NCBI GenBank assembly: GCA_963796055.1
Contig: CAWCKH010000003.1
Location: 640,001 to 704,000 of the forward strand
Direction: 5' to 3'
From: an uncultured delta proteobacterium
GTDB taxonomy: Bacteria; Myxococcota; Myxococcia; Myxococcales; Myxococcaceae
Length of the DNA: 64,000 bases
The position numbers were made by a program, and so were the translations under genes. This document shows positions 1 to 18,314 of the stretch, one piece after another; within the stretch, counting starts at the first letter, position 1; every line of letters starts with the position of its first letter. The notes beneath the pieces were generated by a model that saw only the letters and a program-made list of their open reading frames with translations, had not been told where the DNA came from and did no database searches.

Positions 1-824
1 CCGACCGCCCCGAAGACCCCGCCTTTCACCTCGGGGAGGATCGAGTTGTTCAGGAGCAGCTTCCCCGAGATGCGGCCCCAGACCACCGGCGAGCTGACCC
101 AGTTCTTGGAGAAGATCGCTCCGTTCTCGTTGAGGACCGAGACCGAGTATCGAAGCGCGTTCAGCTCGGTATGGCCGTAGACCTCCACCCCCACCTGGTT
201 CTCTCCGGGCTCGAAGGTCACGGCGCTGCCCTGGGGATGGAAGTGGTAGATGTTGTAGCCTTGGGTGAGGCTGATGATGCGGTGCTCATCCACCGGGAGA
301 TCCGGGGCGTGCTTTCCCACCCGGACGTTGAGGAACGGCGTCCCGAACAGGCGGTGGAACCCGACGAAGGCGGATTCGAGGTCTCCGTCCGCCGGCTCGG
401 TCCCGAACGAGGCACTCCCCAGCCCGGGAGTGTAGACCACCAGGAAGCTGATCTGCTTCCCGAGCGTGCCGGCAGTGAGGATGTCCAGGCCGGCGAAACC
501 CAACGTGCCGTTCTTGGTGGTGGTGGTCCCGGGCGGCTGATCGACCGGGACCCCCTCCTGCTCGGCGTACTGGTAGCCCACGGTGGTGCGGAAGGCGATC
601 GGCCAGTACGTGCCGGGCTGCTCCTTGGGTTCGTCCTTCCCACGGAGCATCTGGTAGCCGTTGTCGCGGAACAGCTCGCCGAAGTCGTTCAGCTTGGGCC
701 AGGCCTCGTGGCACGTGCTGCAGGCCACGTTGTACTTCCGGGCGAACGCCGGGATGGCGTTGGCTTTCCCGGGAAGCAGCGCTGCCAGTGCGGCAGCGGC
801 GACGACGAGGACGCGCAGCTTCAT
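1..824 (-). CDS. Cyc2-like fused monoheme cytochrome c / outer-membrane beta-barrel protein (3' end runs off the window)
   Basis: Not in the ORF track because it has no stop in the window. Manual translation from ATG 824 (SD GGAGGAGG upstream) gives MKLRVLVVAAAALAALLPGKANAIPAFARKYNVACSTCHEAWPKLNDFGELFRDNGY. This is a signal peptide, AxPxFARKY, CxxCH (708-722) and PxL, followed by beta-strand-like sequence (LNVRVGKH, VGVEVYGH, LRYSVSVLN). Confidence 0.8.
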   Translation of the reverse strand, partial: MKLRVLVVAAAALAALLPGKANAIPAFARKYNVACSTCHEAWPKLNDFGELFRDNGYQMLRGKDEPKEQPGTYWPIAFRTTVGYQYAEQEGVPVDQPPGTTTTKNGTLGFAGLDILTAGTLGKQISFLVVYTPGLGSASFGTEPADGDLESAFVGFHRLFGTPFLNVRVGKHAPDLPVDEHRIISLTQGYNIYHFHPQGSAVTFEPGENQVGVEVYGHTELNALRYSVSVLNENGAIFSKNWVSSPVVWGRISGKLLLNNSILPEVKGGVFGAV

Positions 825-1032
825 GCCACCCTCCTCCCGCGAGCCACCCAGGGAACCCGGGCGGCAAGATTGCGCGCGCAACTAAAAAGGCAGTCCGCGA
901 GAAATTCCAAACAAGCGATTCTCACGCCACGGTGCGTCGTGTGAAGCAGAAGCGATGGGCGCGGGCCTGGAATCGCCACTTCATTGCTCGGTCAATCTTT
1001 GAACAGAAGTCCCCCCGGAACGCCGCCAAGAG

Positions 1033-1560
1033 TCAGCGACCGTTCACCACCTGGGTGATGGCGGGCAGCAGCTCCCGGCCGGGCGGCTCGGCGAGTGCAG
1101 GCAGCGCGCGGACCCGGCCGCCGGGGTCGATCAGCACGGCACGCTCGCCGCGGCGGAGCTCCCGCTGCTCGGGGCTTCGTCCCAGCAACGCGACCAGGGG
1201 TGCGGCGCGGGCTTCGTCGTCCAGCACCAGCACCGTCGGCGCGAGCGGAGGCGCCGCATCCCCCGACCCCAGTCGAACCCACTCCAGATCGAAGCCCGGC
1301 CGGACGGAGCGGAGATGGCGGGAGAGCGTTCGCAGCGCCTCCGAGCTGCTGGCAACGCAGCCGGGGCAGGTCGTGTCGGCGAACACGACCAGCCGCCCCC
1401 TCCCGGTGGCCGGGACCCGATCGATGACCGGCAGGGGAGTGGGTGGACGGCGGAGCAACCCCGAGAGAAGGGGGCCCCCGGCGAGGAGCGCCATCGCCGT
1501 CCACCAGAATGCCGGGCGCGCCACCCAGCGCTCGAGGAAGCCGGTCGCGGCGGCGCTCAC
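1033..1560 (-). CDS. Membrane-anchored thioredoxin-fold protein, degenerate SCO-like
   Basis: C-terminal part of ORF 1033..2403. The GTG at 1560 overlaps the upstream stop (GTGA). Has an N-terminal TM, then LPVIDRVP, CPGC, and AVLIDPGGRVRA, which resembles the SCO C-terminal strand. Confidence 0.55.
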   Translation of the reverse strand: MSAAATGFLERWVARPAFWWTAMALLAGGPLLSGLLRRPPTPLPVIDRVPATGRGRLVVFADTTCPGCVASSSEALRTLSRHLRSVRPGFDLEWVRLGSGDAAPPLAPTVLVLDDEARAAPLVALLGRSPEQRELRRGERAVLIDPGGRVRALPALAEPPGRELLPAITQVVNGR

Positions 1561-2258
1561 TTCTTGATCTTTGCGTCGTAGGTAGCCTTCCCCCCGGCGG
1601 GGATGGTGACCGTGCCGAGCTTGGTCCCGGCGACCTCCTGGAAGGTGCCGATCTGGTAGGTCCCGGGCGGGACGTCCTTGATCTCGTACTTGCCCTCCGC
1701 ATCGGTCACCGCCGCGTAGGGGTTCTCGGCCACGAAGAGCGCCCCGCGCATGAAGTTGTGGATGTCGCACTTGAGGGACTGGCCGCCCGCCTTGTTCATC
1801 TTCTTCCCCACCACCATCCCCTGCTTGGGCTCGGCGATGTTCAGGATGGTCCGGCCCTCCTGGTAGGAGTGGATGTTGTGGAGGATGGGGTCGCTGTTCT
1901 TCACCTCGAGCTCGGAGTTGCGAGCGATGATCTGCACGTGAGGCTCGTACCGGCAGCCTTTCTGATCGAGCGTCGGCTTCGGGGGGAGGTCCATCTTCTT
2001 TCCGCTCTTGATGTCCACCAGGTAGACCACCGCCTCCTTCACCCCCCCAGTGGGCGAGACCACCAGCTCGTCCAGCTCGCGTGAGGTGCCGCAGGTCCCC
2101 GGGTCCTGGGTGATGGTCACCTTCTCCGGCTTGGGCGGGGTGCCGTCGTAGGTGATGCGCCCGCTGATCGTGCCCCCGTTGGTGACCGGCCCCTCGGTGT
2201 ACTGCGCGCGGGCGAGGGTGGTGACGGTGAGGACGGCGACCAGGAGTGTCTTTCGCAT
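1557..2258 (-). CDS. Exported cupredoxin-like / carboxypeptidase-regulatory-like domain protein
   Basis: Signal peptide MRKTLLVAVLTVTTLARAQ. Motifs DQKGCRYEPHV, HNIH and KCDIHNFM (His, Cys, His, Met, as in a type-1 Cu site). C-terminal VTDAEGKYEIKDVPPGTY. Confidence 0.75.
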   Translation of the reverse strand: MRKTLLVAVLTVTTLARAQYTEGPVTNGGTISGRITYDGTPPKPEKVTITQDPGTCGTSRELDELVVSPTGGVKEAVVYLVDIKSGKKMDLPPKPTLDQKGCRYEPHVQIIARNSELEVKNSDPILHNIHSYQEGRTILNIAEPKQGMVVGKKMNKAGGQSLKCDIHNFMRGALFVAENPYAAVTDAEGKYEIKDVPPGTYQIGTFQEVAGTKLGTVTIPAGGKATYDAKIKK

Positions 2259-2353: not shown

Positions 2354-2503
2354 AAGCAAGCCCCGAGCTCGAGACCCGGCCAGGCCATGACTCCACGCGG
2401 CAATTCTTTGCCCGGCCGCCTGGTTGCAGTGTCCGCGGGTCAGGACTGCTCACGCAAGCGATCAGATTCCGCCCTCGGCGGCGCCCTGAGTCCTCGGGCA
2501 GTG

Positions 2504-2590
2504 TGCTCGGGGAGGGGGTCGAACCCTCACAGCCCTGATCGGGCTCGCGGATTTTAAGTCCGCTGCGTCTACCGGTTCCGCCACCCGAGC
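2504..2590 (-). tRNA. tRNA-Leu (anticodon TAA), CCA end not encoded
   Basis: Reverse complement reads GCTCGGGTGGCGGAACCGGTAGACGCAGCGGACTTAAAATCCGC...GGTTCGACCCCCTCCCCGAGCA. Anticodon stem GCGGA/TCCGC with loop CTTAAAA, long variable arm, TTCGA T-loop. Confidence 0.95.
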
Positions 2591-7142: not shown

Positions 7143-7165
7143 GGGGAGCGCGGCGCCTTAACAGC

Positions 7166-8945
7166 CTAGAACGTGAAGGGGAAGTCCACCGGCTCGCCCG
7201 GCTGGTACTTGTGCTTGGGGAAGTTCCAGGACTTCACCAAACCGGTGAGACAGGTGGCCATGTAGGAGGACCGGAACTGGTCGGTGACCGCGTTGACCGA
7301 GGTGGTCTTGCCAGAAGTCTGGATGACCCAGTGCATCACCAGCGTGCCGTGCAGGTTCGGGTCTCGCGCCTTCTGCTCGTTCACGCAGCGCACGATGGAT
7401 GGCTTGTTCGCCAGCACCACCGACATGATGTCGCCCTTGGGCAGCCGGTCGGGGACCTCGGTGCTGCTCGAGGCGCCAGGCGCGGGGGGAACGTAGGCGG
7501 TCTTCCTGCCGTTGCTGTGGCTCTCGGTCGGGCTTCGAGCCGCCGCCCGTGCCGAACACCTCGTCGAACAGGTCGTCGGCCTTGCTCTTGCCGTTGCCCG
7601 AGCTCTTCGGAGGCGGGTCGGCCGAGGCGACCTGCTCCTCACCGCCGCCGGACCCCTTGCTTCCGCCCGTGTGGCGGGTGCCCCGGGTTCCTCGCCGGGT
7701 CCCGCTGCCCTCGCTCGGCGGGACGGCCGGTGTGACCTTCGCCACTGGCGGCGTCACCGACGGCGTGACGGTCGGCGTGGTGGTCGCTCCCGCGGGCGCC
7801 TGTGCCTGGGCTGCCTTCGGCGCTTCTGGCGGCGGTGTCACCTTGGCCGGCTCGGGCGGCGCTGGCGGGACCTGACGGACGGCAAGCTCCGCGGCCTTCT
7901 GACGCTGCAGGAGGTACCAGCCGCCTCCACCCACCGCGGCCAGCACCACCGCCACCGCCACCCCGATTCCGATCAGGAGGCTCTTGTTGCCCTGGGACTT
8001 CATCGGCCGCGTGGCGTACGGGTACGCGGGGGTGAAGGTCGGCGGCCGCTCGACGGCGGTGACCGGCGTGGGCGCCTCGGTACGCGCCGGGCGACCGTTC
8101 ACGCTGGCCGCGGGCACCTCGCCGGTCGGCGGCGGCAGCTCGAGCAGCCCGCGCGGCGCGGCCATCGGCTCGGGAGCCGGCGGCGGGGCGTCGGACTTGC
8201 TCAGCGCCTCGATCTCGTCCTTCACCAGGCTGGCCAGGGCGGCCGACGCCGACGGCTTCCACCCACCGGCGTCCGGGACCGGGGTGGGCACCTCGGCCCG
8301 CACCGTGCGCATCACCCCGCCGGCGCTGAACGCCGACTCGACCGGGACCGGAACGACCGGCATCGGCCCGGACGGCGAGGAGGCCGGCGAGAACACCGGG
8401 CGCTGTGGATGGGGGGCGAGCCACGCTGCCAGCTCGGAGACCTCGGAGAGCGCCACCCAGTCCTCGAAGCCCTGGCGCCAGGTGAGGCTGTCGGGGCCGA
8501 TCTCCCCGCGCTCCCAGTGATCCTTGATCGCCTCGGGGGTCAGCGGCCCGGTCTGCTTCTCGTCGATGGCGACGTACCAGTCGTGCGCGCGGGGCGGACC
8601 GTCGCTGACCGGCGGCAGGTTCGCCTCCACCGGCGGTGGCTCCTCTTCCTGGGCCGCAGGCGGCTCGTCCTTGCGCTCCCCGAGCGCGCTCTCGAACGCG
8701 GCGCCAATCTCCTCGTCGTCCACGTCGCTGAAGATCGAGTTCTCGCCGGTGGGCGCCTCGGGTCCAGGGGGCGGGGGCCCGGACTCCTCGAGACCCCGGA
8801 GCGCGGCGTCGGTCTCGGCGTCCTGGGGGCGGCGGACCACGATGACGTTGCTGCACTTCTTGCAACGGACCTTCACCCCGTTCACCCCGACCTTGTCGTC
8901 GGAGATCATGTACTGGGCGCGGCAGCTGTCGCAGACGAAGCGCAT
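7166..8945 (-). CDS. gltJ: Adventurous gliding protein GltJ/AgmX (zinc ribbon, GYF_2, TM, TonB-C-like domain); frameshifted near 7530
   Basis: MRFVCDSCRAQY...VRCKKC zinc ribbon, WYVAIDEKQTGP GYF_2 domain, TM. The C-terminal IVRCVNEQKARDP...VDFPFTF is in another frame. Removing one G from ggg 7530-7532 restores a ~592-aa ORF. Confidence 0.85.
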
Positions 8946-9029: not shown

Positions 9030-12000
9030 CTACTTCCGCGTGGGCACCTCGACGTTGGTCCCCACCGCCAGTCGCAGCGCGGCGAGGTCCTCCGACACCG
9101 CGAAGGTCATCAGCTCGCGGATCTTCACCTTGCCCGCGACGCGGTAGCTCGAGCCGGTTTCACCCTGGACGAGCTTCTTCACCGCCTCGAGGTCTCCCGC
9201 GGTGAATAGCGCACAGCGGACCCCGGTCAGCTCTGCCCCCTCCAGGTATTCCCGGACCGGGTCCGATTCATTCCGCCGGAGCACCTCCGGGACCAGCCGG
9301 GCCAGCGCCGCGCGGAAGGGCTCGGTCATCACCGACTCGAGCGCATTCCGCTCGGCCTCGATGGCCGGAGCCGGAGCGGTCCAGCGCATCTGGAACCCGG
9401 CGAGCAGCACCGCGCCCTGGAACACCGCCGCCAGCCGCTCGGGGGCGAAGCGCGAGGCGAAGATGAGCTCGGGCCGGAGCAGCGCCAGCATGCGCCCGAG
9501 CTGGGCGTGGGTGTCCTTCGCCTGGGGATCGCCGAAGAACTTTCCGCCGACCTTCAGGCACACCGGCTGGGAGTGGATGATCTCCACCCCGAGGAGCGGG
9601 TCGGGGGCGGGCTCCATCGAGCGCTTGGCGAGCTTGTCGCGGGTGGCCACCAGGAACGGCGAGAAGAGCTCCACCGCCTCCAGCCCCAGCAGCCGCGCCA
9701 CCGCGCGGTAGTGGTGGATCTGGTACTCCTGGGCGGTCGCCACGTCGATCCGGTGCTTCTTGGGGATCAGCTGCGCCTGGGCGAGGGGGACCGCGGAGAG
9801 CTGACCCGCGCCCTGGAAGAGCAGGCCCATCAGCTCGGCGAACGGGGTCCGCGCCTTCGGGTGGAGCAGGTGCTGGGCCCAGAGCCGATCGTTGAGCGTG
9901 GCCCGCGGGGTCTCGCGCTTCTTCGCGTACGGCCCGAGCTTGCCGATGATCTCCTTCTCCGCCGGACCGGGGTCCCCGAGCAACCCCGCGACCACCTGGG
10001 CAGCGAGCCACGCACCGTCGTAGTCCTTCCGGCGCGCGGCGAGCTCGGCGAGCTGGCTCGCGATCTTCTTCGGATTCTGGGTGTGGGCCAGCGCCCGCCG
10101 CAGCGCCTGCACCGCGGGCTCCTCGTTCCCGGACGACTGGAGGAGGAGGTCGGCGTAGGTCTCCTGGACAGTGGCGTCGTCGGGGAGTCCCGCCGCGGCC
10201 ACCTTGTATGCCATCAGCGCGCTCTCCGGCTGCTTCAAGACTTGAAGGTAGAGGTCTCCCAGGGTCCGCCACAGCGCCATCCGCGCCGACTCGGTCTCGT
10301 CGGTCTTCGGCAGCCGCTGGATCATCCGGGCGTAGTTCTCCTCCAGCTGCTTCCACTCCTTCGCCGCCCCGAGCATCGCCTCGATGCTGCTGAAGGCCTC
10401 GATGAACAGCGGATCCAGGTCGAGGGCCGCGTTGAAGGCCTCCACCGCCCGGCCCGTGTCACGCAGCTCGTCGCGGAGGCTCTCGCCCAGCGCGAACCAC
10501 ACCCGCTTGGCGCGCTGCGCGTCGGCCTGCAGCTCGGGTTGCCCGAGCATGACTTCCAGTATTTCGGCGGCCTTCCCCGGCTGGCGGGTTTCCCGGAAGA
10601 GCACGTAGAGCGCGTCCATCACCTCCAGCGACTGCGGGCGGATCCGAAGGGCCTGGCCGTAGGCGTCGATGGCGGTGTGCAGGTCCTTGAGCCGGTCGCG
10701 GGCGATCTGCCCCAGCTCCAGCGCGGCCTCGGCCTTCGGGTCGCCGTCGAGGATGTTGACCAGCGCCTGCCGGTACTCGGCCGAGCGGTCCCAGCGCCCT
10801 GCCCCGTCCGCGAGCTGGATCAGCGAGCGGAGGCTCGGCTCGTGGCCGGGATCGATGGCCAGCGCCTTCTCGAAGTGGTTCTGCGCCCGGTCGTACTGCT
10901 TGAGCGCGATGTGCACCTCGCCGATCTGCCAGTACAGCTCGACGATCTCCAGATCGGTCAGGTCCTCGCGGTGGTGGATGAGGATGGTCTGGAAGACTTT
11001 CAGCGCCAGGTCGTGCCGGCCGGACTGGACCAGGAGGTTCCCGTAGCCCTCGAGCGCGGGGAGGTAGGTGGCGTCGAGCTGGTAGGCCTCCTCGTACGCG
11101 GCCAGCGCCCGGTCTCGGCGTCCCAGCTTCTCCTGCACGTACCCCATCCGGTAGACCTGCCGGCACAGGTCCCTCTCCAGGGCCTCGTCCTGCTCGCTGG
11201 CGAGCCGGCCCTTGAGGTTGCGGATGACCACGTCGAGCATCTTCTCCGCCGGCTCCCAGCGCTCGCGGGCGAGGTAGAGGTCGGACAGCGGCAGCGCGGC
11301 CTCGGCCTGCTCGGGGTCGAGCTTGATCGCCTCCTCGTACCACTGCATCGCCGAGTCGGCGTCCTCGCGGCGCTCGCTGTGGTAGCGCCCCACGGCGAGG
11401 TAGGCCAGGGACTTGGCCGAGGCCTCGCTGGTGGCCTGGGCCTCGGCGACCAGGATCTGCTCGTAGCTTTCCCAGTCCTGCTCGTTCTCGGCGATGCCGC
11501 GGAGCGCTTGCAGCGAGGGCAGGTACTCGGGATCGATGCGCAGGGCCTCGGAGTAGCAGGCCTTGGCCGAGGACACGTCCTGCAGCATGTCCTCGTTGAT
11601 CTTCCCCATCCGGTGCAGCACCTCGACCGCGCGGGGGTCGCGCCCCAGCGCCTCGGCTTCCTGGTGCAGCATCTCCAGGGCGAAGGGCCAGTTGCCGCTC
11701 CGCTCGTAGACCATGCCCAGGGCGTGGAGCGCCGGGGTGTGGCCGGGGTGGACGCCCAGCGCGGCCTGGAACGCGTCCGCGGCCTTGTCGGTCTGGTGCA
11801 GGTGGGAGCGAAGCACCTCTCCGGCCTCCACCATGATGTCGGCCTGCTCCTGGGAGTCGATGGCGAGCTGGATGTGCCGCTCCAGCACTCCCACCAGGTC
11901 CTCCCAGCGGCCCTGCGCCCGCCGCAGCCGCTCCAGCGCCTTGATCGCCTGGAGATTGGTGGGATCGAGCGCGAGCACACCCTCGATGCAGGCGTCGGCG

Positions 12001-15000
12001 TTGGCCGCGTTCTGGTAGCGGTCCTCCCAGATGGCCGCGGAGTGGAAGAGGATCTTCACCTTCTCCCGGTAGTCCTCGGTCAGCTCCAGCTGCCGCTCGT
12101 AGATGGTCAGCATGTCCGCCGGCCGGTCCAGCCGGGTGTAGAGGCGCTCCAGCGCCGAGAGAGCCTCTGCGTTCCTCGGGTCGAGCCCCAGGGCCTCGCG
12201 GTACGCCTCGACCGCGGCCTCCTCGTCTCCGATCTCCCGTTCCTGGACGCCGGCCATTTCCACCTGCATCCGCGCCCGCTCCTCGGAGCTGGGCAGCAGA
12301 TCCCGGGTCCGGGCGAGCGTGGCGGCGAGGTCGCCCCACATGTGCTGGTCGCGGTAGAGCCTGGCCAGCTCGCCGAGCGTCTCCACGTCGGGCTCGAGCT
12401 CCAGCGCGCGGATGAGGGCGTTGGCCGCCTCTTCCGGATCCTTCAGCCGCTCGAGCTGGATGCGGGAGATCTCCCGGAAGAGGGTCTTCCGGGCCTCGAG
12501 CGACGGGGCGGCCTCAATCTTCTGCTCCAGCGAGACGATGAGCTCGCGGTCCCGTCCGCGGCGCCCGAACATCTGGGCCATCGCGTCGAGCGCGGAGGAG
12601 TTGGTGGGATCGAACTCGAGGATCTTCCGGAGCGCGGCCTCGGCCTCGCCGGGGTCGTCCAGGTTCCGGTCCTGCACCCGGGCCAGGACCAGGTAGAGCC
12701 GCTCCGCGAGCGGGCCACGGGGAAGATCGTCCGCCACCTGCTCGTAGACCGCGGCCAGCTCCTCGTACGAGCCGGTCTCCTGCGCCAGCCGCTCCACGTC
12801 CTCACGGAGCGAGTCGTCCGAGGCGGCGAGCTGCAGCGCCCGACAGAGGGCGAGGAAGGCGCCGTCCTTCTGCCCCAGCTTGTGCTCCCGGATACGGCCC
12901 AGCTCGCGCAGCGCCTTGATCTTGTCCTCGTCGGTGACGAGGTTCGGCAGGTAGCGGTCCACCGCCTGGGCGTAGGCGCGCCAGTCGCCGGCGTCGGAGT
13001 AGAGCGACAGCACCCGCTCGTGGGCACCCCGGTTCGCCGGGTCGAACTCCAGCACCCGCTCCAGGATGGGCGCCGCCAGCTCGGCCTTGCCGGCCTGGCC
13101 AATCCACAGCTCGGCGATCTCGAACAGCGCGGCGATGACCCCCTCCTTCTCCTCCAGCCGTTGCCAGACCTCGGCCTTCAGCTCCAGGGTGCGGACCGCG
13201 TCGCCGAAGGCGCGGAGCCCGAGGAAGAGCTTCCCCACCGCCTCGAGGTCCTGGACGATGTGCGGCTCGATCTCCAGCGAGCGCCGGGCAGCATCCAGCG
13301 CTTCCTCGCGCCGGCCCATCTCGCCCAGCACCTCTGCCAGCCGGATGCGGAGCCCCTTGACCCCCTCGGGGCTCTCTTGCAGCGGGATGAGCCGCCGCAG
13401 CACCGCGACCAGCTCCTCGCGCCGCCCGAGCTGCTCGTCGATGTCGCGCAGCGTCTCCAGCGCGTTCCGGTTGCGCGCATCCCGCTCCAGCGCCGTGCGC
13501 AGCGGGGCGATGGCCTCCTCGGCCCGTCCGAGCTGCCGGTAGAGCACCACGCCCAGCTTCTCGTTCAGGCGCACCAGCTCCCGGGGCTCGGCGACCTGGG
13601 GAATCTTCCCCGCCATCAGCGCCCTGAGATCTTCCCACCGGCCAGCCTTCTCCAGCGCCTGCTCCAGCGCGCCGAACGCCTGGTCCGACCTGGGGTTCTT
13701 CTTGAACAGCTCGCTGTACAGCTCGATGGAGGCCTCGAGGTCGGCCAGCCCCTCCGCGGAGACCTTCACCATCTTGGCCAGGATGCGCTCGCGTTCCGGG
13801 CCGGAGGTCAGGTCACGCTGGATGCGCAGAACGTTGAACAGCCGGTCCGGTGTCCCGCTGCGCTCGTAGATGGACTCCAGCAGCCGGGCGGCGGGGAGGT
13901 GCGTCCGGTCGATGGCCAGTAGCCGCTCGAAGGCGTCGGCGGCGCGGGGCTCGTCCTCCAGCTCGTCCTGGGCCACCTGGCCGAGGCGGAAGAGGATCTG
14001 CACCCGCTCGTTGCCGTCGGGGGTGAGCGTCTCCAGCTCGTCCAGGCTCTGGACCAGCCGGTCGCTCCGGCCCGCCTGACCATAGAGCCGGGCCAGCGCG
14101 GTGAGCGCGGGGAGGGCGGTGGCGGCGTCGAGCTCCCTGGCACGCTCCAGGACCTCGATCGCCCGGGCCGGGTTGGAGAGGTGCTGCTCGTAGAGGCCGC
14201 CCAGCTCCAGCAGCACCGCCGCGGCGTCCTTGGTCTCGGCGATGCGGGGAAGCTCCTCCTCGTAGAGCTGGGCCAGCGCCTCGTGGGTCCTCCCCGCATC
14301 GGCGGCCTTGCCCACCCGGCTCCGGAGAGTGGGGTCGTTGGGATCCTCCTGGAAGGCGCGGGAGAGCGCACCGAAGAGCCCGGCCGGGTCGTGGGCCGCC
14401 TCGCTCAGGCCCGCCAGCTCCACCAGGAGCTGCTTGCGCTCGAACGGGTCGGCCGAGGCGCCGACGCGAAGCTCGAGGAGCTGCGCCAGCTTCCCCTGCT
14501 CTGCCGTGGTCCGGTAGGCGCCGAGCAGCACGTCGACCAGCGGCTTGTTCTGGGGCTCGCGCTGCGCCCAGGCCTCGAGCTGCGCCAGCGCGCCGGCGTG
14601 CTTCGGCTGGGCGGCGAGGACCTGCCCGTACAGCTCGAGGGCGCCGTACTTATCGAGGAGCCGCGTCTCGCGGACGATGGCCAGACGGGTCCGGAGGTCG
14701 AGGTCGAGGTCCCCGCCGGGCAGCGCGAGCCGCCGGCCGATGACGTCCGCCAGCTCGGGCCAGCGCTCCTGCTTCTCGCAGAGCGCGTCGAGCTTCTCCA
14801 GCGCCTGGGCGTCGTCGGGCTTCAGCTCCAGCAGCCGCCGGAGCGTGGCCATGGCACCGACCGTGTCGTGGAGGGCGCCGTCTTGCAGCCCGGCGATCTG
14901 GAAGAGCAGCGCGGCGCGGACCGCCGGCTCCTCGGTGATCGACAGCTGGCGCCGGTAGATCTCCAGCAGCTCGGGGGCGCGGCCGGCGGACTGGTAGAGC

Positions 15001-18000
15001 CGCACCAGGCTCTCCATCGCCTCGACCTCGGAGGGCACCACCTCCAGCACCCGGCGCCAGGCGTCGATCGCCTCGGCGCGATGCCCCAGCTTCTCCTGGG
15101 CCCTGCCCAGCGCGCGGAGGATGGCCACCTGCGCGGTGTCCTCCGAGGCGCGGGGGAGGATCTCCTCCAGGAGCGAGGCCAGCTCCTCGCCGCCGTGGGT
15201 GGCCCGCTCGGAGAGGGTGACCGTCAGGGTCAGCGAGGCCTCCTCGTCGGGCAGCTCGCGCAGCGCCCGGCTGGCCGAGACGAAGGCCAGGTCGGCGTTC
15301 TGCATCGGTCCGGCGTAGAGCTTGGCGACCTTGCGCAGCAGCGCGGCGCGCTCCTCGGCCACCGGCTCGGTCGAGGCACGGGACTCGAGCATCTGCACCA
15401 GCCGCAGGTGGTCGCCGCCGGAGGTGAAGATGGGCTCCAGGGCTTCGGCGGCCTCGCCGCGGAGCGGGCTGTCCGAGCGGGCCATCTCCTCCAGCGCCCC
15501 GATGGCCCCGGCGTGACCCTGCTTCCTCCGGAGCACGTCCTCGAAGATGTCCAGGCCGCCCCGCGGGTCCCGGAGCCGCGCCAGGCGTAGCCGTCCGAGG
15601 CGGACCATGAGGTCGTACATCTCCTCGTGGCGACCACTGGAGTCGGCGAGCTGGATCTCCCGCACGATGAGCGAGGCCAGCTCGGGCCAGCGCTCGCTCT
15701 CGGTGAGCACCTTGCCCAGGAACTTGATCGCGTCCTCGTCGTCCGACTTGCGGGCGAGGACCTCTCCGTAGCACTGGGCCGCCAGCTGCTTGTCGGACAA
15801 GGTCTCCTCGGCCAGCGTGCCCAGCCGGAAGAGCAGATCGATCTGCTTCGGCGGCGACGGTTCGGCCATCACCATCCGCTTCATCACCGAGGCCAGCTCG
15901 CGCGCTTCGCCGGACCGAGTGTGGATTCGGGCCAGCGCCTCGAGCACCGACATGTTCCTCGGCTCGCGCCGGGCCAGCTCCTCGTAGGCGCGGATGGCCA
16001 GATCCACCCGGTCGAGCCGCTCGGACCAGAGCACCGCCAGCCGCCGCCAGAGCTCGGTGGAGGTGGCGTTGGTGACGCCGCGCTCCAGCTGGTCCTGGTA
16101 AGCCGCGGCCAGCTCCTCGAAGGAGCCGGTCTCGGCGGCGAGCCGCTCCAGCTGCTCGCGGGCCTCCGGGCTCTCGGGCATCTCGCCGAAGGCGCGCACC
16201 CGGGCGGCGAAGGCCAGGTCCTTCTGTCCCAGCGTCTCGCGGAGATTGGAGATCTCCTCCAGCAGCGGGAGCCGGTCCTGGGGCGAGGCCCCGGCGAGGC
16301 GGATCTCCAGGACCTCCACCAGGTGGCGGACGTCGTTCAGGCTCCGGTAGACGGGCTCCAGCAGGCGGGCGGCGTCGGGACGGACCTCGGGGAGCTCCAT
16401 CAGACGCTCCAGCCCGGCGACGGCGCTGGAGTCGGTGGAGGCGACCGCGAGGAGCCGGGCATAGCCCTCGACCGCGGCGGGGAGGGCCTTCTCCCGCTCC
16501 AGGAGCTGGGCGCGCGACAACAGATAAGCCTTCTGCGCCTCGCCGGTGGTCCAGGCGGCGAGCTGGGCCAGGACATCCGCCTGCTCCTCGAAGCGCTTGC
16601 CGCGGGCGTAGAGGCGATCCAGTGCCTCCAGCCCGTCGGCTCCCCGGCGCAGCGCCAGGGCCTCCTTGTAGGCGTCGATGGCCCGGGCGTCGTCGGAAGC
16701 AGCCTCCAGCGCCTCACCGGCCTTGAGCAGCAGCGCCCTTCGCTCGTGGGGGTCGGAGGCGAGCTGGGCCTTGCGCAGGGTGACGTCCGAGAGCTGCTTG
16801 GCATTCTTGGTCTGCTCGAAGAGCTTCCCCAGCGCGTCGAGCGCCTGGCGGTCCTGCGGCGCCTCGACCAGCAGCGCCTGCCAGTCCTTGATCGACTCCT
16901 CGCTCTGGGCCAGGTGCTCGCGCAGCTCGGCGGCGCGGCGTAGCCAGGACACCTTGTCCGGGTCCGGCCCGCGGGTCTCGGCGGCCACCTTCTCGTAGAC
17001 GGCAGCCAGCTCCTCGTAGCTGCCGCTCACCCTGGCCAGGCGCTCGAGATCGGCCCTGGCTGCGGCGCGATCCACATTCTGGGCGAACGCCTGGCCCGCG
17101 GAGACGAAGGCCCGCTGCGGCTGGCCCATGTCCCTTTCCTGGATCGAGCGGACCTCCTGGGTCAGGCGGATCTTCTCGTCGCTGAGCGCGTCGCCCATCC
17201 GCGCTTCCCGGATGGCGACGCGGCGCGCGTGCTGCCCCGAGCGGGCGAGAATCGGGTCCAGCGTGTCGAGGGCGCTCCGGCTGTCCGGCTCGTGCGAGCG
17301 GGCCCACGCCTCGAGGAGGTCGAGGGTGGGGGTGTGCCCCGGGTCCTCGGAGAGCACCTGCCCCAGGAGCTGCAGCGCGCCGCCGAAGTCCTGGAGCTTC
17401 TCCCGCCGGAGCTGGGCGAGGCGGAAGGTGGCCTCACGCCCCTGCGGGCTCTGCCCCTCCTGAGCACGACGGAGCTCGAGCGCGAAGGCCAGGTTCTCGA
17501 ACTTCCCGAGCGCGGTGTACAGCCGGTCGAGCGCAGAGACGGCCTCGCGGTTCAGCGGGTCGGCCTCGGAGACCCGGCGCCAGGCAGCGGCGGCACCTTC
17601 GCGGTCCTCCAGCTTCCCTTCCCGCAGCAGCGCCATCTCGCGCCAGAGCGCTAGCCGCTCGGCAGGGTCCGGCACCACCGTGGCCAGGGTGTCCAGCACC
17701 GAGACCAGCCGACGCCAGTCGTCGGTGGCGCGGAGCAGCCGTTGCAGTGCCCGGAGCGCATCGACGTTGCCGGCCTCGATCACCAGCACCGACTCGAGCT
17801 GGGCGATGGCCCCCCGGCGATCGTCGAGCTTCTTCTCCTGCACGTCGGCCAGCTCGCGGTGGAGCGCAACCCGCGCCGGCGAGTCGAGGTCCACGCGGCC
17901 CACCAGCTCCTTGAGCACGTTGGCGAAGCCGTCCATCGCGTCGGCGTCCTCGGCGGCCCGGCGCGCAGCGGTGCGGAGGTTGGGGTCGGCAGGGGACAGG

Positions 18001-18314
18001 CGCAGGGCGCGGGAGAGCGCAGCGAAGGCCAGCTCGGGCTGACGCAGGTGGTGGAGGTGGACGTGCGCGGCCTGCTGCAGCGCGAGCACCCGCTCCAGCT
18101 GGTCCTGGGTCATCTCGGCGACGAGGTCGAGCGCGGCGACGAGCTTGCGGTGCTCCTTCACCGCCTCGTAGGCGGGGATGAGGGCACGCGCGGCCTCGGC
18201 GCGCACCGAGTCGTCCTTCAGCAGCGCTTCCAGCGCCGCGAGCGCCTCGGCGTCATTCGGCTTCTTGTGCAGGACGGCGGAGTACGCCTTGACGGAATCG
18301 GCACCGGTCCCCAA
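9030..18314 (-). CDS. gltI: Giant TPR-repeat gliding protein GltI/AgmK
   Basis: 3094-aa TPR-rich ORF directly upstream of gltJ, C-terminus LRLAVGTNVEVP. TTG start with GGAGG 9 nt upstream. Confidence 0.85.
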   Translation of the reverse strand: MGTGADSVKAYSAVLHKKPNDAEALAALEALLKDDSVRAEAARALIPAYEAVKEHRKLVAALDLVAEMTQDQLERVLALQQAAHVHLHHLRQPELAFAALSRALRLSPADPNLRTAARRAAEDADAMDGFANVLKELVGRVDLDSPARVALHRELADVQEKKLDDRRGAIAQLESVLVIEAGNVDALRALQRLLRATDDWRRLVSVLDTLATVVPDPAERLALWREMALLREGKLEDREGAAAAWRRVSEADPLNREAVSALDRLYTALGKFENLAFALELRRAQEGQSPQGREATFRLAQLRREKLQDFGGALQLLGQVLSEDPGHTPTLDLLEAWARSHEPDSRSALDTLDPILARSGQHARRVAIREARMGDALSDEKIRLTQEVRSIQERDMGQPQRAFVSAGQAFAQNVDRAAARADLERLARVSGSYEELAAVYEKVAAETRGPDPDKVSWLRRAAELREHLAQSEESIKDWQALLVEAPQDRQALDALGKLFEQTKNAKQLSDVTLRKAQLASDPHERRALLLKAGEALEAASDDARAIDAYKEALALRRGADGLEALDRLYARGKRFEEQADVLAQLAAWTTGEAQKAYLLSRAQLLEREKALPAAVEGYARLLAVASTDSSAVAGLERLMELPEVRPDAARLLEPVYRSLNDVRHLVEVLEIRLAGASPQDRLPLLEEISNLRETLGQKDLAFAARVRAFGEMPESPEAREQLERLAAETGSFEELAAAYQDQLERGVTNATSTELWRRLAVLWSERLDRVDLAIRAYEELARREPRNMSVLEALARIHTRSGEARELASVMKRMVMAEPSPPKQIDLLFRLGTLAEETLSDKQLAAQCYGEVLARKSDDEDAIKFLGKVLTESERWPELASLIVREIQLADSSGRHEEMYDLMVRLGRLRLARLRDPRGGLDIFEDVLRRKQGHAGAIGALEEMARSDSPLRGEAAEALEPIFTSGGDHLRLVQMLESRASTEPVAEERAALLRKVAKLYAGPMQNADLAFVSASRALRELPDEEASLTLTVTLSERATHGGEELASLLEEILPRASEDTAQVAILRALGRAQEKLGHRAEAIDAWRRVLEVVPSEVEAMESLVRLYQSAGRAPELLEIYRRQLSITEEPAVRAALLFQIAGLQDGALHDTVGAMATLRRLLELKPDDAQALEKLDALCEKQERWPELADVIGRRLALPGGDLDLDLRTRLAIVRETRLLDKYGALELYGQVLAAQPKHAGALAQLEAWAQREPQNKPLVDVLLGAYRTTAEQGKLAQLLELRVGASADPFERKQLLVELAGLSEAAHDPAGLFGALSRAFQEDPNDPTLRSRVGKAADAGRTHEALAQLYEEELPRIAETKDAAAVLLELGGLYEQHLSNPARAIEVLERARELDAATALPALTALARLYGQAGRSDRLVQSLDELETLTPDGNERVQILFRLGQVAQDELEDEPRAADAFERLLAIDRTHLPAARLLESIYERSGTPDRLFNVLRIQRDLTSGPERERILAKMVKVSAEGLADLEASIELYSELFKKNPRSDQAFGALEQALEKAGRWEDLRALMAGKIPQVAEPRELVRLNEKLGVVLYRQLGRAEEAIAPLRTALERDARNRNALETLRDIDEQLGRREELVAVLRRLIPLQESPEGVKGLRIRLAEVLGEMGRREEALDAARRSLEIEPHIVQDLEAVGKLFLGLRAFGDAVRTLELKAEVWQRLEEKEGVIAALFEIAELWIGQAGKAELAAPILERVLEFDPANRGAHERVLSLYSDAGDWRAYAQAVDRYLPNLVTDEDKIKALRELGRIREHKLGQKDGAFLALCRALQLAASDDSLREDVERLAQETGSYEELAAVYEQVADDLPRGPLAERLYLVLARVQDRNLDDPGEAEAALRKILEFDPTNSSALDAMAQMFGRRGRDRELIVSLEQKIEAAPSLEARKTLFREISRIQLERLKDPEEAANALIRALELEPDVETLGELARLYRDQHMWGDLAATLARTRDLLPSSEERARMQVEMAGVQEREIGDEEAAVEAYREALGLDPRNAEALSALERLYTRLDRPADMLTIYERQLELTEDYREKVKILFHSAAIWEDRYQNAANADACIEGVLALDPTNLQAIKALERLRRAQGRWEDLVGVLERHIQLAIDSQEQADIMVEAGEVLRSHLHQTDKAADAFQAALGVHPGHTPALHALGMVYERSGNWPFALEMLHQEAEALGRDPRAVEVLHRMGKINEDMLQDVSSAKACYSEALRIDPEYLPSLQALRGIAENEQDWESYEQILVAEAQATSEASAKSLAYLAVGRYHSERREDADSAMQWYEEAIKLDPEQAEAALPLSDLYLARERWEPAEKMLDVVIRNLKGRLASEQDEALERDLCRQVYRMGYVQEKLGRRDRALAAYEEAYQLDATYLPALEGYGNLLVQSGRHDLALKVFQTILIHHREDLTDLEIVELYWQIGEVHIALKQYDRAQNHFEKALAIDPGHEPSLRSLIQLADGAGRWDRSAEYRQALVNILDGDPKAEAALELGQIARDRLKDLHTAIDAYGQALRIRPQSLEVMDALYVLFRETRQPGKAAEILEVMLGQPELQADAQRAKRVWFALGESLRDELRDTGRAVEAFNAALDLDPLFIEAFSSIEAMLGAAKEWKQLEENYARMIQRLPKTDETESARMALWRTLGDLYLQVLKQPESALMAYKVAAAGLPDDATVQETYADLLLQSSGNEEPAVQALRRALAHTQNPKKIASQLAELAARRKDYDGAWLAAQVVAGLLGDPGPAEKEIIGKLGPYAKKRETPRATLNDRLWAQHLLHPKARTPFAELMGLLFQGAGQLSAVPLAQAQLIPKKHRIDVATAQEYQIHHYRAVARLLGLEAVELFSPFLVATRDKLAKRSMEPAPDPLLGVEIIHSQPVCLKVGGKFFGDPQAKDTHAQLGRMLALLRPELIFASRFAPERLAAVFQGAVLLAGFQMRWTAPAPAIEAERNALESVMTEPFRAALARLVPEVLRRNESDPVREYLEGAELTGVRCALFTAGDLEAVKKLVQGETGSSYRVAGKVKIRELMTFAVSEDLAALRLAVGTNVEVPTRK

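Follow-up and report, generated by a model that had tools for sequence, protein, structure and literature searches.

The cytochrome-porin Cyc2 is defined, in passages of Keffer et al. (PMC8406198), by an AXPXFAR[Q/K][T/Y] motif, a single CXXCH, PXL and a 16-strand OprO/OprP-like porin, OprO and OprP being the templates given there. The Cyc2-family proteins with biochemical data that are described in passages of three sources oxidize Fe(II) (PMC8406198, PMC13741234, PMC13692758). A known gene arrangement is that of Acidithiobacillus ferrooxidans, called the rus operon (cyc2-cyc1-cup-coxBACD-rus). The acidophilic iron oxidizer Leptospirillum uses Cyt572, whose N-terminus and haem motif are printed in a review that also reports Fe(II) oxidation for it (PMC13741234, in the passages available), in a chain with Cyt579 and a cbb3 oxidase, the genes of which are not clustered according to parts of Li et al. 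(PMC10654088). Among the Cyc2 clusters, cluster 3 has the most uncertain function, and Cyt572, a long branch, may not represent it (PMC8406198, in part). Here we describe a Cyc2-type locus in a myxobacterial genome and compare it with these systems.

The cyc2 gene and its product

The stretch of DNA analyzed (the window, 64,000 nucleotides) corresponds to G000:C3:640001-704000, part of a 5.53 Mb genome, G000, that is 98.5% complete and carries one copy of cyc2. The initial annotation had noticed an exported CSTCH-EAWPKL protein that was hidden from the ORF track. The peptide was confirmed: read from position 824 on the minus strand down to position 1, the window encodes MKLRVLVVAAAALAALLPGKANA followed directly by IPAFARKYNVACSTCHEAWPKLNDFGELFRDNGY, in a frame that is open up to the window edge with no stop. 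The only reason for its absence from the track is that the gene runs past this edge, and extension of the contig to the left, as had been proposed, gave the complete gene (Table 1).

Table 1. Coordinates of the features at and around cyc2.
Feature	Position	Strand	Remarks
5' part of Cyc2-type monohaem cytochrome-porin gene	window 1..824	-	last 510 bases left of window
Whole cyc2 gene	G000:C3:639490-640824	-	444 aa
Predicted signal peptide, residues 1-23, ending ANA	window 756..824	-	read directly from sequence
Cyc2 signature AIPAFARKY, CSTCH (722-708), PKL	window 690..758	-	motif reading and alignment
12-bp palindrome TTGCGCGCGCAA	window 870..881	.	conserved non-coding stretch before cyc2
SCO/thioredoxin-like protein, 175 aa, CPGC	window 1033..1560	-	upstream of cyc2
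Exported type-1 (blue) cupredoxin inserted in carboxypeptidase-regulatory-like domain, 233 aa	window 1557..2258	-	
Dihaem cytochrome c, cytA	C3:638705-639478	same as cyc2	directly downstream of cyc2
Oxidase subunit III	C3:638053-638691	same as cyc2	
Oxidase subunit IV	C3:637745-638056	same as cyc2	
54-aa ORF	C3:637584-637748	same as cyc2	
Oxidase subunit II with CuA ligands	C3:636802-637587	same as cyc2	
Oxidase subunit I, A1 type	C3:635009-636805	same as cyc2	
Second oxidase subunit III	C3:634399-635001	same as cyc2	
Second dihaem cytochrome, cytB	C3:633454-634395	same as cyc2	

The protein has a single CxxCH (C35) and ends in IDFAF, with a C-terminal Phe. The GC3 of the gene is 0.90, and its ribosome site GGAGGAGG is kept in all four aligned genomes. 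The N-terminus consists of MK, a hydrophobic stretch and ANA, in a cleavage context like that of Cyt572, and a signal peptide and export are predicted. The AXPXFAR[Q/K][T/Y] motif lies five residues ahead of the CXXCH (AIPAFAR-KYNVA-CSTCH) and PXL follows four residues on (CSTCH-EAW-PKL), a spacing that agrees with the definition in the passages of Keffer et al. (PMC8406198). P-x-F-x-R-K, CxxCH and W-P-x-L are invariant across 104 aligned rows, and CxxCH is kept in 90 of the 90 rows of a wide alignment. Of 8000 candidates that were scored, 341 proved to be homologues (E ≤ 0.001), and together with the invariant motifs they demonstrate that the ORF is not a chance frame.

None of the 120 homologues listed bears a functional name; their organism labels, where given, are Myxococcaceae, Myxococcales or Deltaproteobacteria. 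Neither Pfam nor NCBIfam assigned the protein to a family, and the 104 aligned members had no hit there with a meaningful E-value; a PDB sequence search gave no match. Clusters found in the ESM Atlas were mostly unnamed, one of them having PF07396 on 20% of its members. Five plasmid records match the haem domain only, and no RNA run was among the matches listed in a search of sequencing runs.

To examine the fold, the mature protein was modeled with AlphaFold2 from the 104-row alignment. The model has a mean pLDDT of 90.5 and 16 long strands, forming the C-terminal barrel that the initial annotation had anticipated; the haem domain is its least confident part (pLDDT 59–65 over residues 1–20). 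Its top structural matches were tied, namely chitoporin (Z 24.2, rmsd 3.5, 312 aligned residues), PorB (Z 23.9) and OprP (Z 23.8, rmsd 3.3, 313 aligned), followed by maltoporin (Z 15.7), with no solved Cyc2 among the matches listed. The C-terminal domain is thus predicted to be a 16-strand outer-membrane porin. The motif, the predicted fold and the full-length homology to Cyt572-type proteins support the assignment of the protein as a Cyc2-family monohaem cytochrome fused to such a porin, as originally proposed.

To place the protein within the family, we scanned with the Cyt572 N-terminus and haem motif and obtained five metagenome loci, identified as Cyt572-type by motif only, one of which carries the exact AANA/YPGF context. 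A barrel-only profile, built with the haem domain left out, was then scored on 18 proteins. Five family members reached E ≤ 1e-58 and three Cyt572-type proteins 1e-13 to 1e-12, while ten other Cyc2-like proteins scored no better than 0.0056 and the reversed controls no better than 29. The strong match to Cyt572 is confined to the first ~135 profile positions; a full profile-profile comparison (hhalign) gave a probability of 99.7 over 370 columns. The acidic and His residues E127, E191, H195 and E390, conserved in the G000 family, differ in the Cyt572-type row.

As the barrel profile matches Leptospirillum-type Cyt572 without the haem domain, the G000 protein appears to lie on the cluster-3 side. 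In a quick tree of 48 rows (L021 left out, Cyt572 rows identified by motif only) it falls in a 13-row Myxococcota clade with support 100, inside a branch (SH-aLRT 96) shared with Acidobacteriota, Nitrospira and three Cyt572-type rows, the Cyt572 branch being long (1.58). This fits parts of Li et al. (PMC10654088), where Cyc572 is reported to derive from densely clustered homologues of Acidobacteria and Nitrospira. Membership in cluster 3 is therefore likely, in a tree that holds no verified cluster-1 or cluster-2 sequence. The initial annotation had named the Cyc2 of Acidithiobacillus, Zetaproteobacteria and Gallionellaceae; the protein sits on the Cyt572 side and not demonstrably with the named groups. 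Close homologues also occur in Nitrospira, a group not known as iron oxidizers.

The host had been described as a gliding myxobacterium, and this description is supported: relatives at 73–82% identity are labeled Myxococcaceae, and a GltJ model scored 411.7 bits, below its cut-off of 450. The GltJ-like gene (window 7158-8945, minus strand) seems to shift frame near the C-terminus and is followed in the window by a gene for a 3094-aa TPR protein (9030-18314, minus strand).

The gene string and its oxidase

The string comprises nine genes on one strand, with cyc2 as the first and cytB as the last; neighbours are −4 to 13 nt apart, and the genes are presumably co-transcribed. The idea of an outer-membrane electron conduit, already put forward from the first 824 nucleotides, is strengthened by the genes for a dihaem cytochrome and an oxidase that lie downstream. 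The best solved match of cytA is PDB 6h5l_B (E 2.4e-51), which we take to be Kuenenia Kustc0457. Complex prediction gave Cyc2 with cytA a score of 0.50, against 0.00 for the best control; 116 among 157 solved complexes attain this mark, as do 2 among 215 mismatches, but only 18 of the solved complexes and both mismatches do so at 0.60 or under. Contacts agreed between runs by at least 33%, with a partner pLDDT of at least 85. The models thus hint, weakly, at a contact between the two proteins.

Upstream, the cupredoxin/SCO pair is set off from cyc2 by a gap of 208 nt, and in another genome (G008) the pair has the opposite orientation. The His…Cys-x2-His-x2-Met set of the cupredoxin (H109, C146, H149, M152) is invariant in 76 rows. 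Its model (pLDDT 96.2) has an amicyanin/plastocyanin-like fold, with amicyanin at Z 10.3 (rmsd 2.0, 84 aligned) and AcoP at only Z 8.0. The SCO/thioredoxin-like protein has no Pfam or NCBIfam match; its rank 4 cluster in the ESM Atlas has PF02630 on 31% of members, a lead to a possible copper-assembly factor. The palindrome TTGCGCGCGCAA before cyc2 is exact in three of four aligned genomes, has one mismatch in the fourth and occurs once in G000. It may be an operator or promoter element. An FNR-type box was also considered and rejected, since none of the six one-mismatch matches in L001 lies before cyc2.

A tRNA-Leu(TAA) gene (window 2503-2590, minus strand) stands directly upstream of the cupredoxin gene and adjoins the pair in all four congeners checked. 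Recent horizontal transfer at this tRNA is unsupported, given its retention in these congeners, the genome-like GC3 and the Myxococcota clades in which both Cyc2 and the oxidase of G000 fall. Genes for the large and small subunits of a [NiFe]-hydrogenase and for hyp maturation were found some 20 kb away (L002:1810-10700; G000:C3, about 605–615 kb; distance measured to the oxidase genes), possibly a second inorganic electron source.

Subunit I of the oxidase has GHPEVY and all metal ligands, the six His included (H98, H282/E284/Y286, H331, H332, H417 and H419). The D-channel residues D128, N135 and N201 are present and CuA lies in subunit II, as in A1-type enzymes. The K-channel departs from the A1 pattern PTGxK, with PAELL instead of PTGIK and thus Leu for Lys. 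At cyc2 loci, none of the 58 helix VIII segments that could be read has this Lys, some rows being near-duplicates and two frameshifted halves having no such segment. Two other oxidases are encoded in G000, a B-family-like one and an A2 enzyme that has the K-channel Lys and seems to belong to an alternative complex III operon, so the A1 enzyme of the string is the third oxidase of this genome. Haem A synthase genes and cytochrome c assembly genes (three PF01578 matches) are present.

The clade of this oxidase is myxobacterial and occurs without any Cyc2 match in four genomes (G014, G015, G018 and G024), while further oxidases lacking the Lys were seen in four others without a Cyc2 match (G013, G017, G021 and G023). 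The type of oxidase is therefore uninformative on iron, and the missing Lys was rejected as a sign that iron is oxidized. Another clade of Lys-less GHPEVY oxidases (PVAEM; L140, L141, L143, L144) occurs in members of the family that have large genomes, and its hosts may include cultivable ones for enzyme tests.

A scan of species genomes confirmed at least 551 relatives of the cyc2 locus, of which the best 80 were counted; the loci are kin and not independent. These 80 are mostly from Acidobacteriota, and also from Myxococcota, Nitrospirota, Gemmatimonadota and others. Within them, a dihaem gene lies directly downstream of cyc2 in 75, a cupredoxin is present in 70 and oxidase subunit I in 58. 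Where at least 6 kb of downstream sequence was available (69 of the 80), 56 loci have an oxidase, 49 of the A family and 7 of the cbb3 type, and 13 have none nearby. The A-family partners form three separate clades, so that with cbb3 the cyc2 module meets four oxidase lineages. The joining of a cyc2-dihaem(-cupredoxin) module to a cbb3-type oxidase was seen in Acidobacteriota (L035, L039, L044, L047, L049, L080 and L095).

Of the 12 other genomes in the genus, five carry a cyc2 orthologue, four with the whole string and the fifth on short contigs. The other seven, several of them fragmented or 66–89% complete, yielded no cyc2, cytA or CoxA orthologue. Across the phylum, the barrel-only query matched 27 of 401 genomes, all of one order and 3.8–7.7 Mb in size, and gave no match in several well-sampled genera (0/32, 0/21, 0/19). 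A second, distant Cyc2-like subfamily with a cupredoxin-like neighbour was noticed at L111:8287-9630 (minus strand) and L112:6678, in the congeners G007 and G004, the G004 copy appearing frameshifted.

Proposed direction and donor of the electron flow

The myxobacterial string is a complete set of porin, carrier, cupredoxin and oxidase, as observed in motifs, gene order, homology and conservation. Our best reading, which we hold tentatively and at slightly less than even confidence, is that the Cyc2 protein is the entry of an electron-uptake chain from Fe(II) to O2. Dissolved external Fe(II) would reduce the haem of Cyc2, putatively covalent; from there the electrons would presumably cross the periplasm on the dihaem cytochrome and the blue-copper protein; and the A1-type oxidase encoded next to them would deliver them via CuA to O2. 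Uptake would be auxiliary, giving a heterotroph extra proton-motive force. The gain is put there, and autotrophy rejected, because RuBisCO, PRK and CdhC, the enzymes that the search covered, were not found in the 98.5% complete genome. An inward flow to O2 is probable, chiefly because of the repeated pairing with different O2 reductases, while Fe(II) as the main donor is about as plausible as not, leaning to the doubtful side.

Gene order and linkage would suit any donor, and the same inward wiring might be fed mainly by humic quinones in reduced form, by Mn(II) or by a different soluble reductant small enough to enter the pore, which we consider somewhat unlikely. Cyc2 has been proposed for Mn(II) in Manganitrophaceae (PMC9040806, in part), passages of a preprint consider organic matter in reduced form as an electron source of Cyc2 carriers (bioRxiv 10.1101/2022.03.26.485925), and pore residues of the G000 family differ from those of Cyt572. 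However, the biochemically tested Cyc2-family proteins, as far as the sources describe them, oxidize Fe(II), and the narrow OprP-like pore of about 3.5 Å given in passages of Keffer et al. (PMC8406198) is a better fit for an ion than for a polymer such as humic matter. The adjacent SCO-like gene and cupredoxin, as well as a chemoreceptor downstream at one related locus (L040), would also agree with a redox or metal sensor, or a Cu/Fe importer for oxidase assembly, that lies beside the oxidase for co-regulation and not for energy uptake. This is improbable, as the gene that almost always adjoins cyc2 encodes a redox carrier (at 75 of the best 80 of at least 551 loci), also beside cbb3 oxidases, and the G000 string contains no receptor gene.

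As OmcA/MtrC-family decahaem genes occur elsewhere in G000, the organism probably exports electrons, and one Cyc2 has a low potential of −130 mV (PMC13692758, in part). Nevertheless, we regard it as quite improbable that Cyc2 itself conducts periplasmic electrons outward to external Fe(III) or humics under O2 shortage, since the string has no quinol dehydrogenase or bc complex, its partner is an O2 reductase, and one haem would not reach across the membrane according to parts of Keffer et al. (PMC8406198). A plain porin whose haem motif is a relic and which neighbours the oxidase by chance would be in line with the patchy spread across the phylum, yet it is very improbable in view of the CxxCH kept throughout the wide alignment and the linkage that recurs with four oxidase lineages.

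Two further loci of G000 deserve mention. A second extracellular electron-transfer cluster (L120:5152-18444; G000:C1, about 307–320 kb) holds the two OmcA/MtrC-like decahaem genes, one of them above the TIGR03507 cut-off, together with 13- and 9-haem proteins, a Rieske protein and cytochrome b, three small cytochromes c and a 477-aa ORF without family, possibly a porin; an MtrB/PioB porin was not found in the genome. At L123:7435-8655 (minus strand; G000:C4, about 1.741 Mb), an exported monohaem protein with beta-barrel-like sequence has YPWMIRHGY and then CSACH, no Pfam or NCBIfam family and a cupredoxin-like gene nearby. Judged by these features, it possibly belongs to a separate cytochrome-porin family.

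Returning to uptake from Fe(II), a wider picture can be drawn, which is doubtful at present. A group of small-genome Myxococcales would be lithoheterotrophic iron oxidizers; Cyc2, a Kustc0457-like dihaem cytochrome and a cupredoxin would form a portable uptake front end that several phyla have put on available oxidases (three Lys-less A-family clades and cbb3); and, with the OmcA/MtrC cluster, iron might be cycled both ways. Should Fe(II) be the donor, the iron oxidizers would include, as heterotrophs, the myxobacteria, a group known for predation and decomposition. The function of cluster-3 Cyc2 is a question named in the literature, many carriers not being known iron oxidizers. As the locus is a complete and compact set that can be expressed and reconstituted, the donor is directly testable. 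The oxidase would at the same time allow a test of turnover and of putative pumping in an A1 enzyme without the K-channel lysine.

Comparison with known systems

The initial annotation regarded such a conduit as a trait not established in myxobacteria. Passages of Olmsted et al. (bioRxiv 10.1101/2022.03.26.485925) already name Cyc2 in MAGs of Myxococcota, and that part is therefore less new. The myxobacterial operon itself was not found described in a literature search covering titles, abstract starts and passages, with subscription papers mostly outside. The string 'Myxococc' is absent from the ten supplement files of McAllister 2020 and from the main text of the preprint of Degli Esposti et al.; passages and five supplements of the journal version (PMC8239418) contain neither 'Myxococc' nor 'Cyc2'. 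New is the myxobacterial variant on a native oxidase without the K-channel lysine, while rus-like soil clusters and Myxococcota Cyc2 had already been mentioned in print.

Leptospirillum Cyt572 shares with the G000 protein ANA followed by xPxFARKYN, CSxCH and WPxL, a predicted 16-strand barrel and homology over 370 profile columns, and both lie on the same side of the 96-supported branch. They differ in that identity is about 28% and the mature protein has about 520 residues in Cyt572 and 421 in G000. In Kuenenia, a dihaem cytochrome stands beside a type-1 cupredoxin (Kustc0457/Kustc0456; PMC12053348, in part), and both classes are also found at the G000 locus. The Kuenenia pair serves an HAO-like enzyme (Kustc0458), whereas that of G000 is associated with an outer-membrane porin and an oxidase.

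The rus variants of soil bacteria, which are MAG-derived, have other cytochromes c and a duplicated COX3, as in the G000 string. For these variants, passages of Degli Esposti et al. propose transfer from acidophile ancestors, whereas Cyc2 and the oxidase of G000 form Myxococcota clades. The rus operon of A. ferrooxidans brings together the same classes of parts, a cytochrome-porin, a dihaem cytochrome, a cupredoxin and a CuA/haem-copper oxidase, and its subunit I also lacks the K-channel Lys according to parts of PMC10654088. Beyond protein class, the combination of rusticyanin, a c4-type Cyc1 and the coxBACD order does not recur, the order in G000 being coxC-D-(orf)-B-A-C. The A. ferrooxidans Cyc2 belongs to cluster 2 and its dihaem cytochrome is a c4, whereas the G000 Cyc2 lies on the Cyt572 side and its dihaem cytochrome matches PDB 6h5l_B. 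G000 has one cupredoxin, amicyanin-like and with an extra domain, and its oxidase is of the A1 type, has subunit III encoded twice and is accompanied by a further dihaem cytochrome, while the rus oxidase is classed as A2 in the passages available. The G000 string is thus a rus-like but distinct operon.
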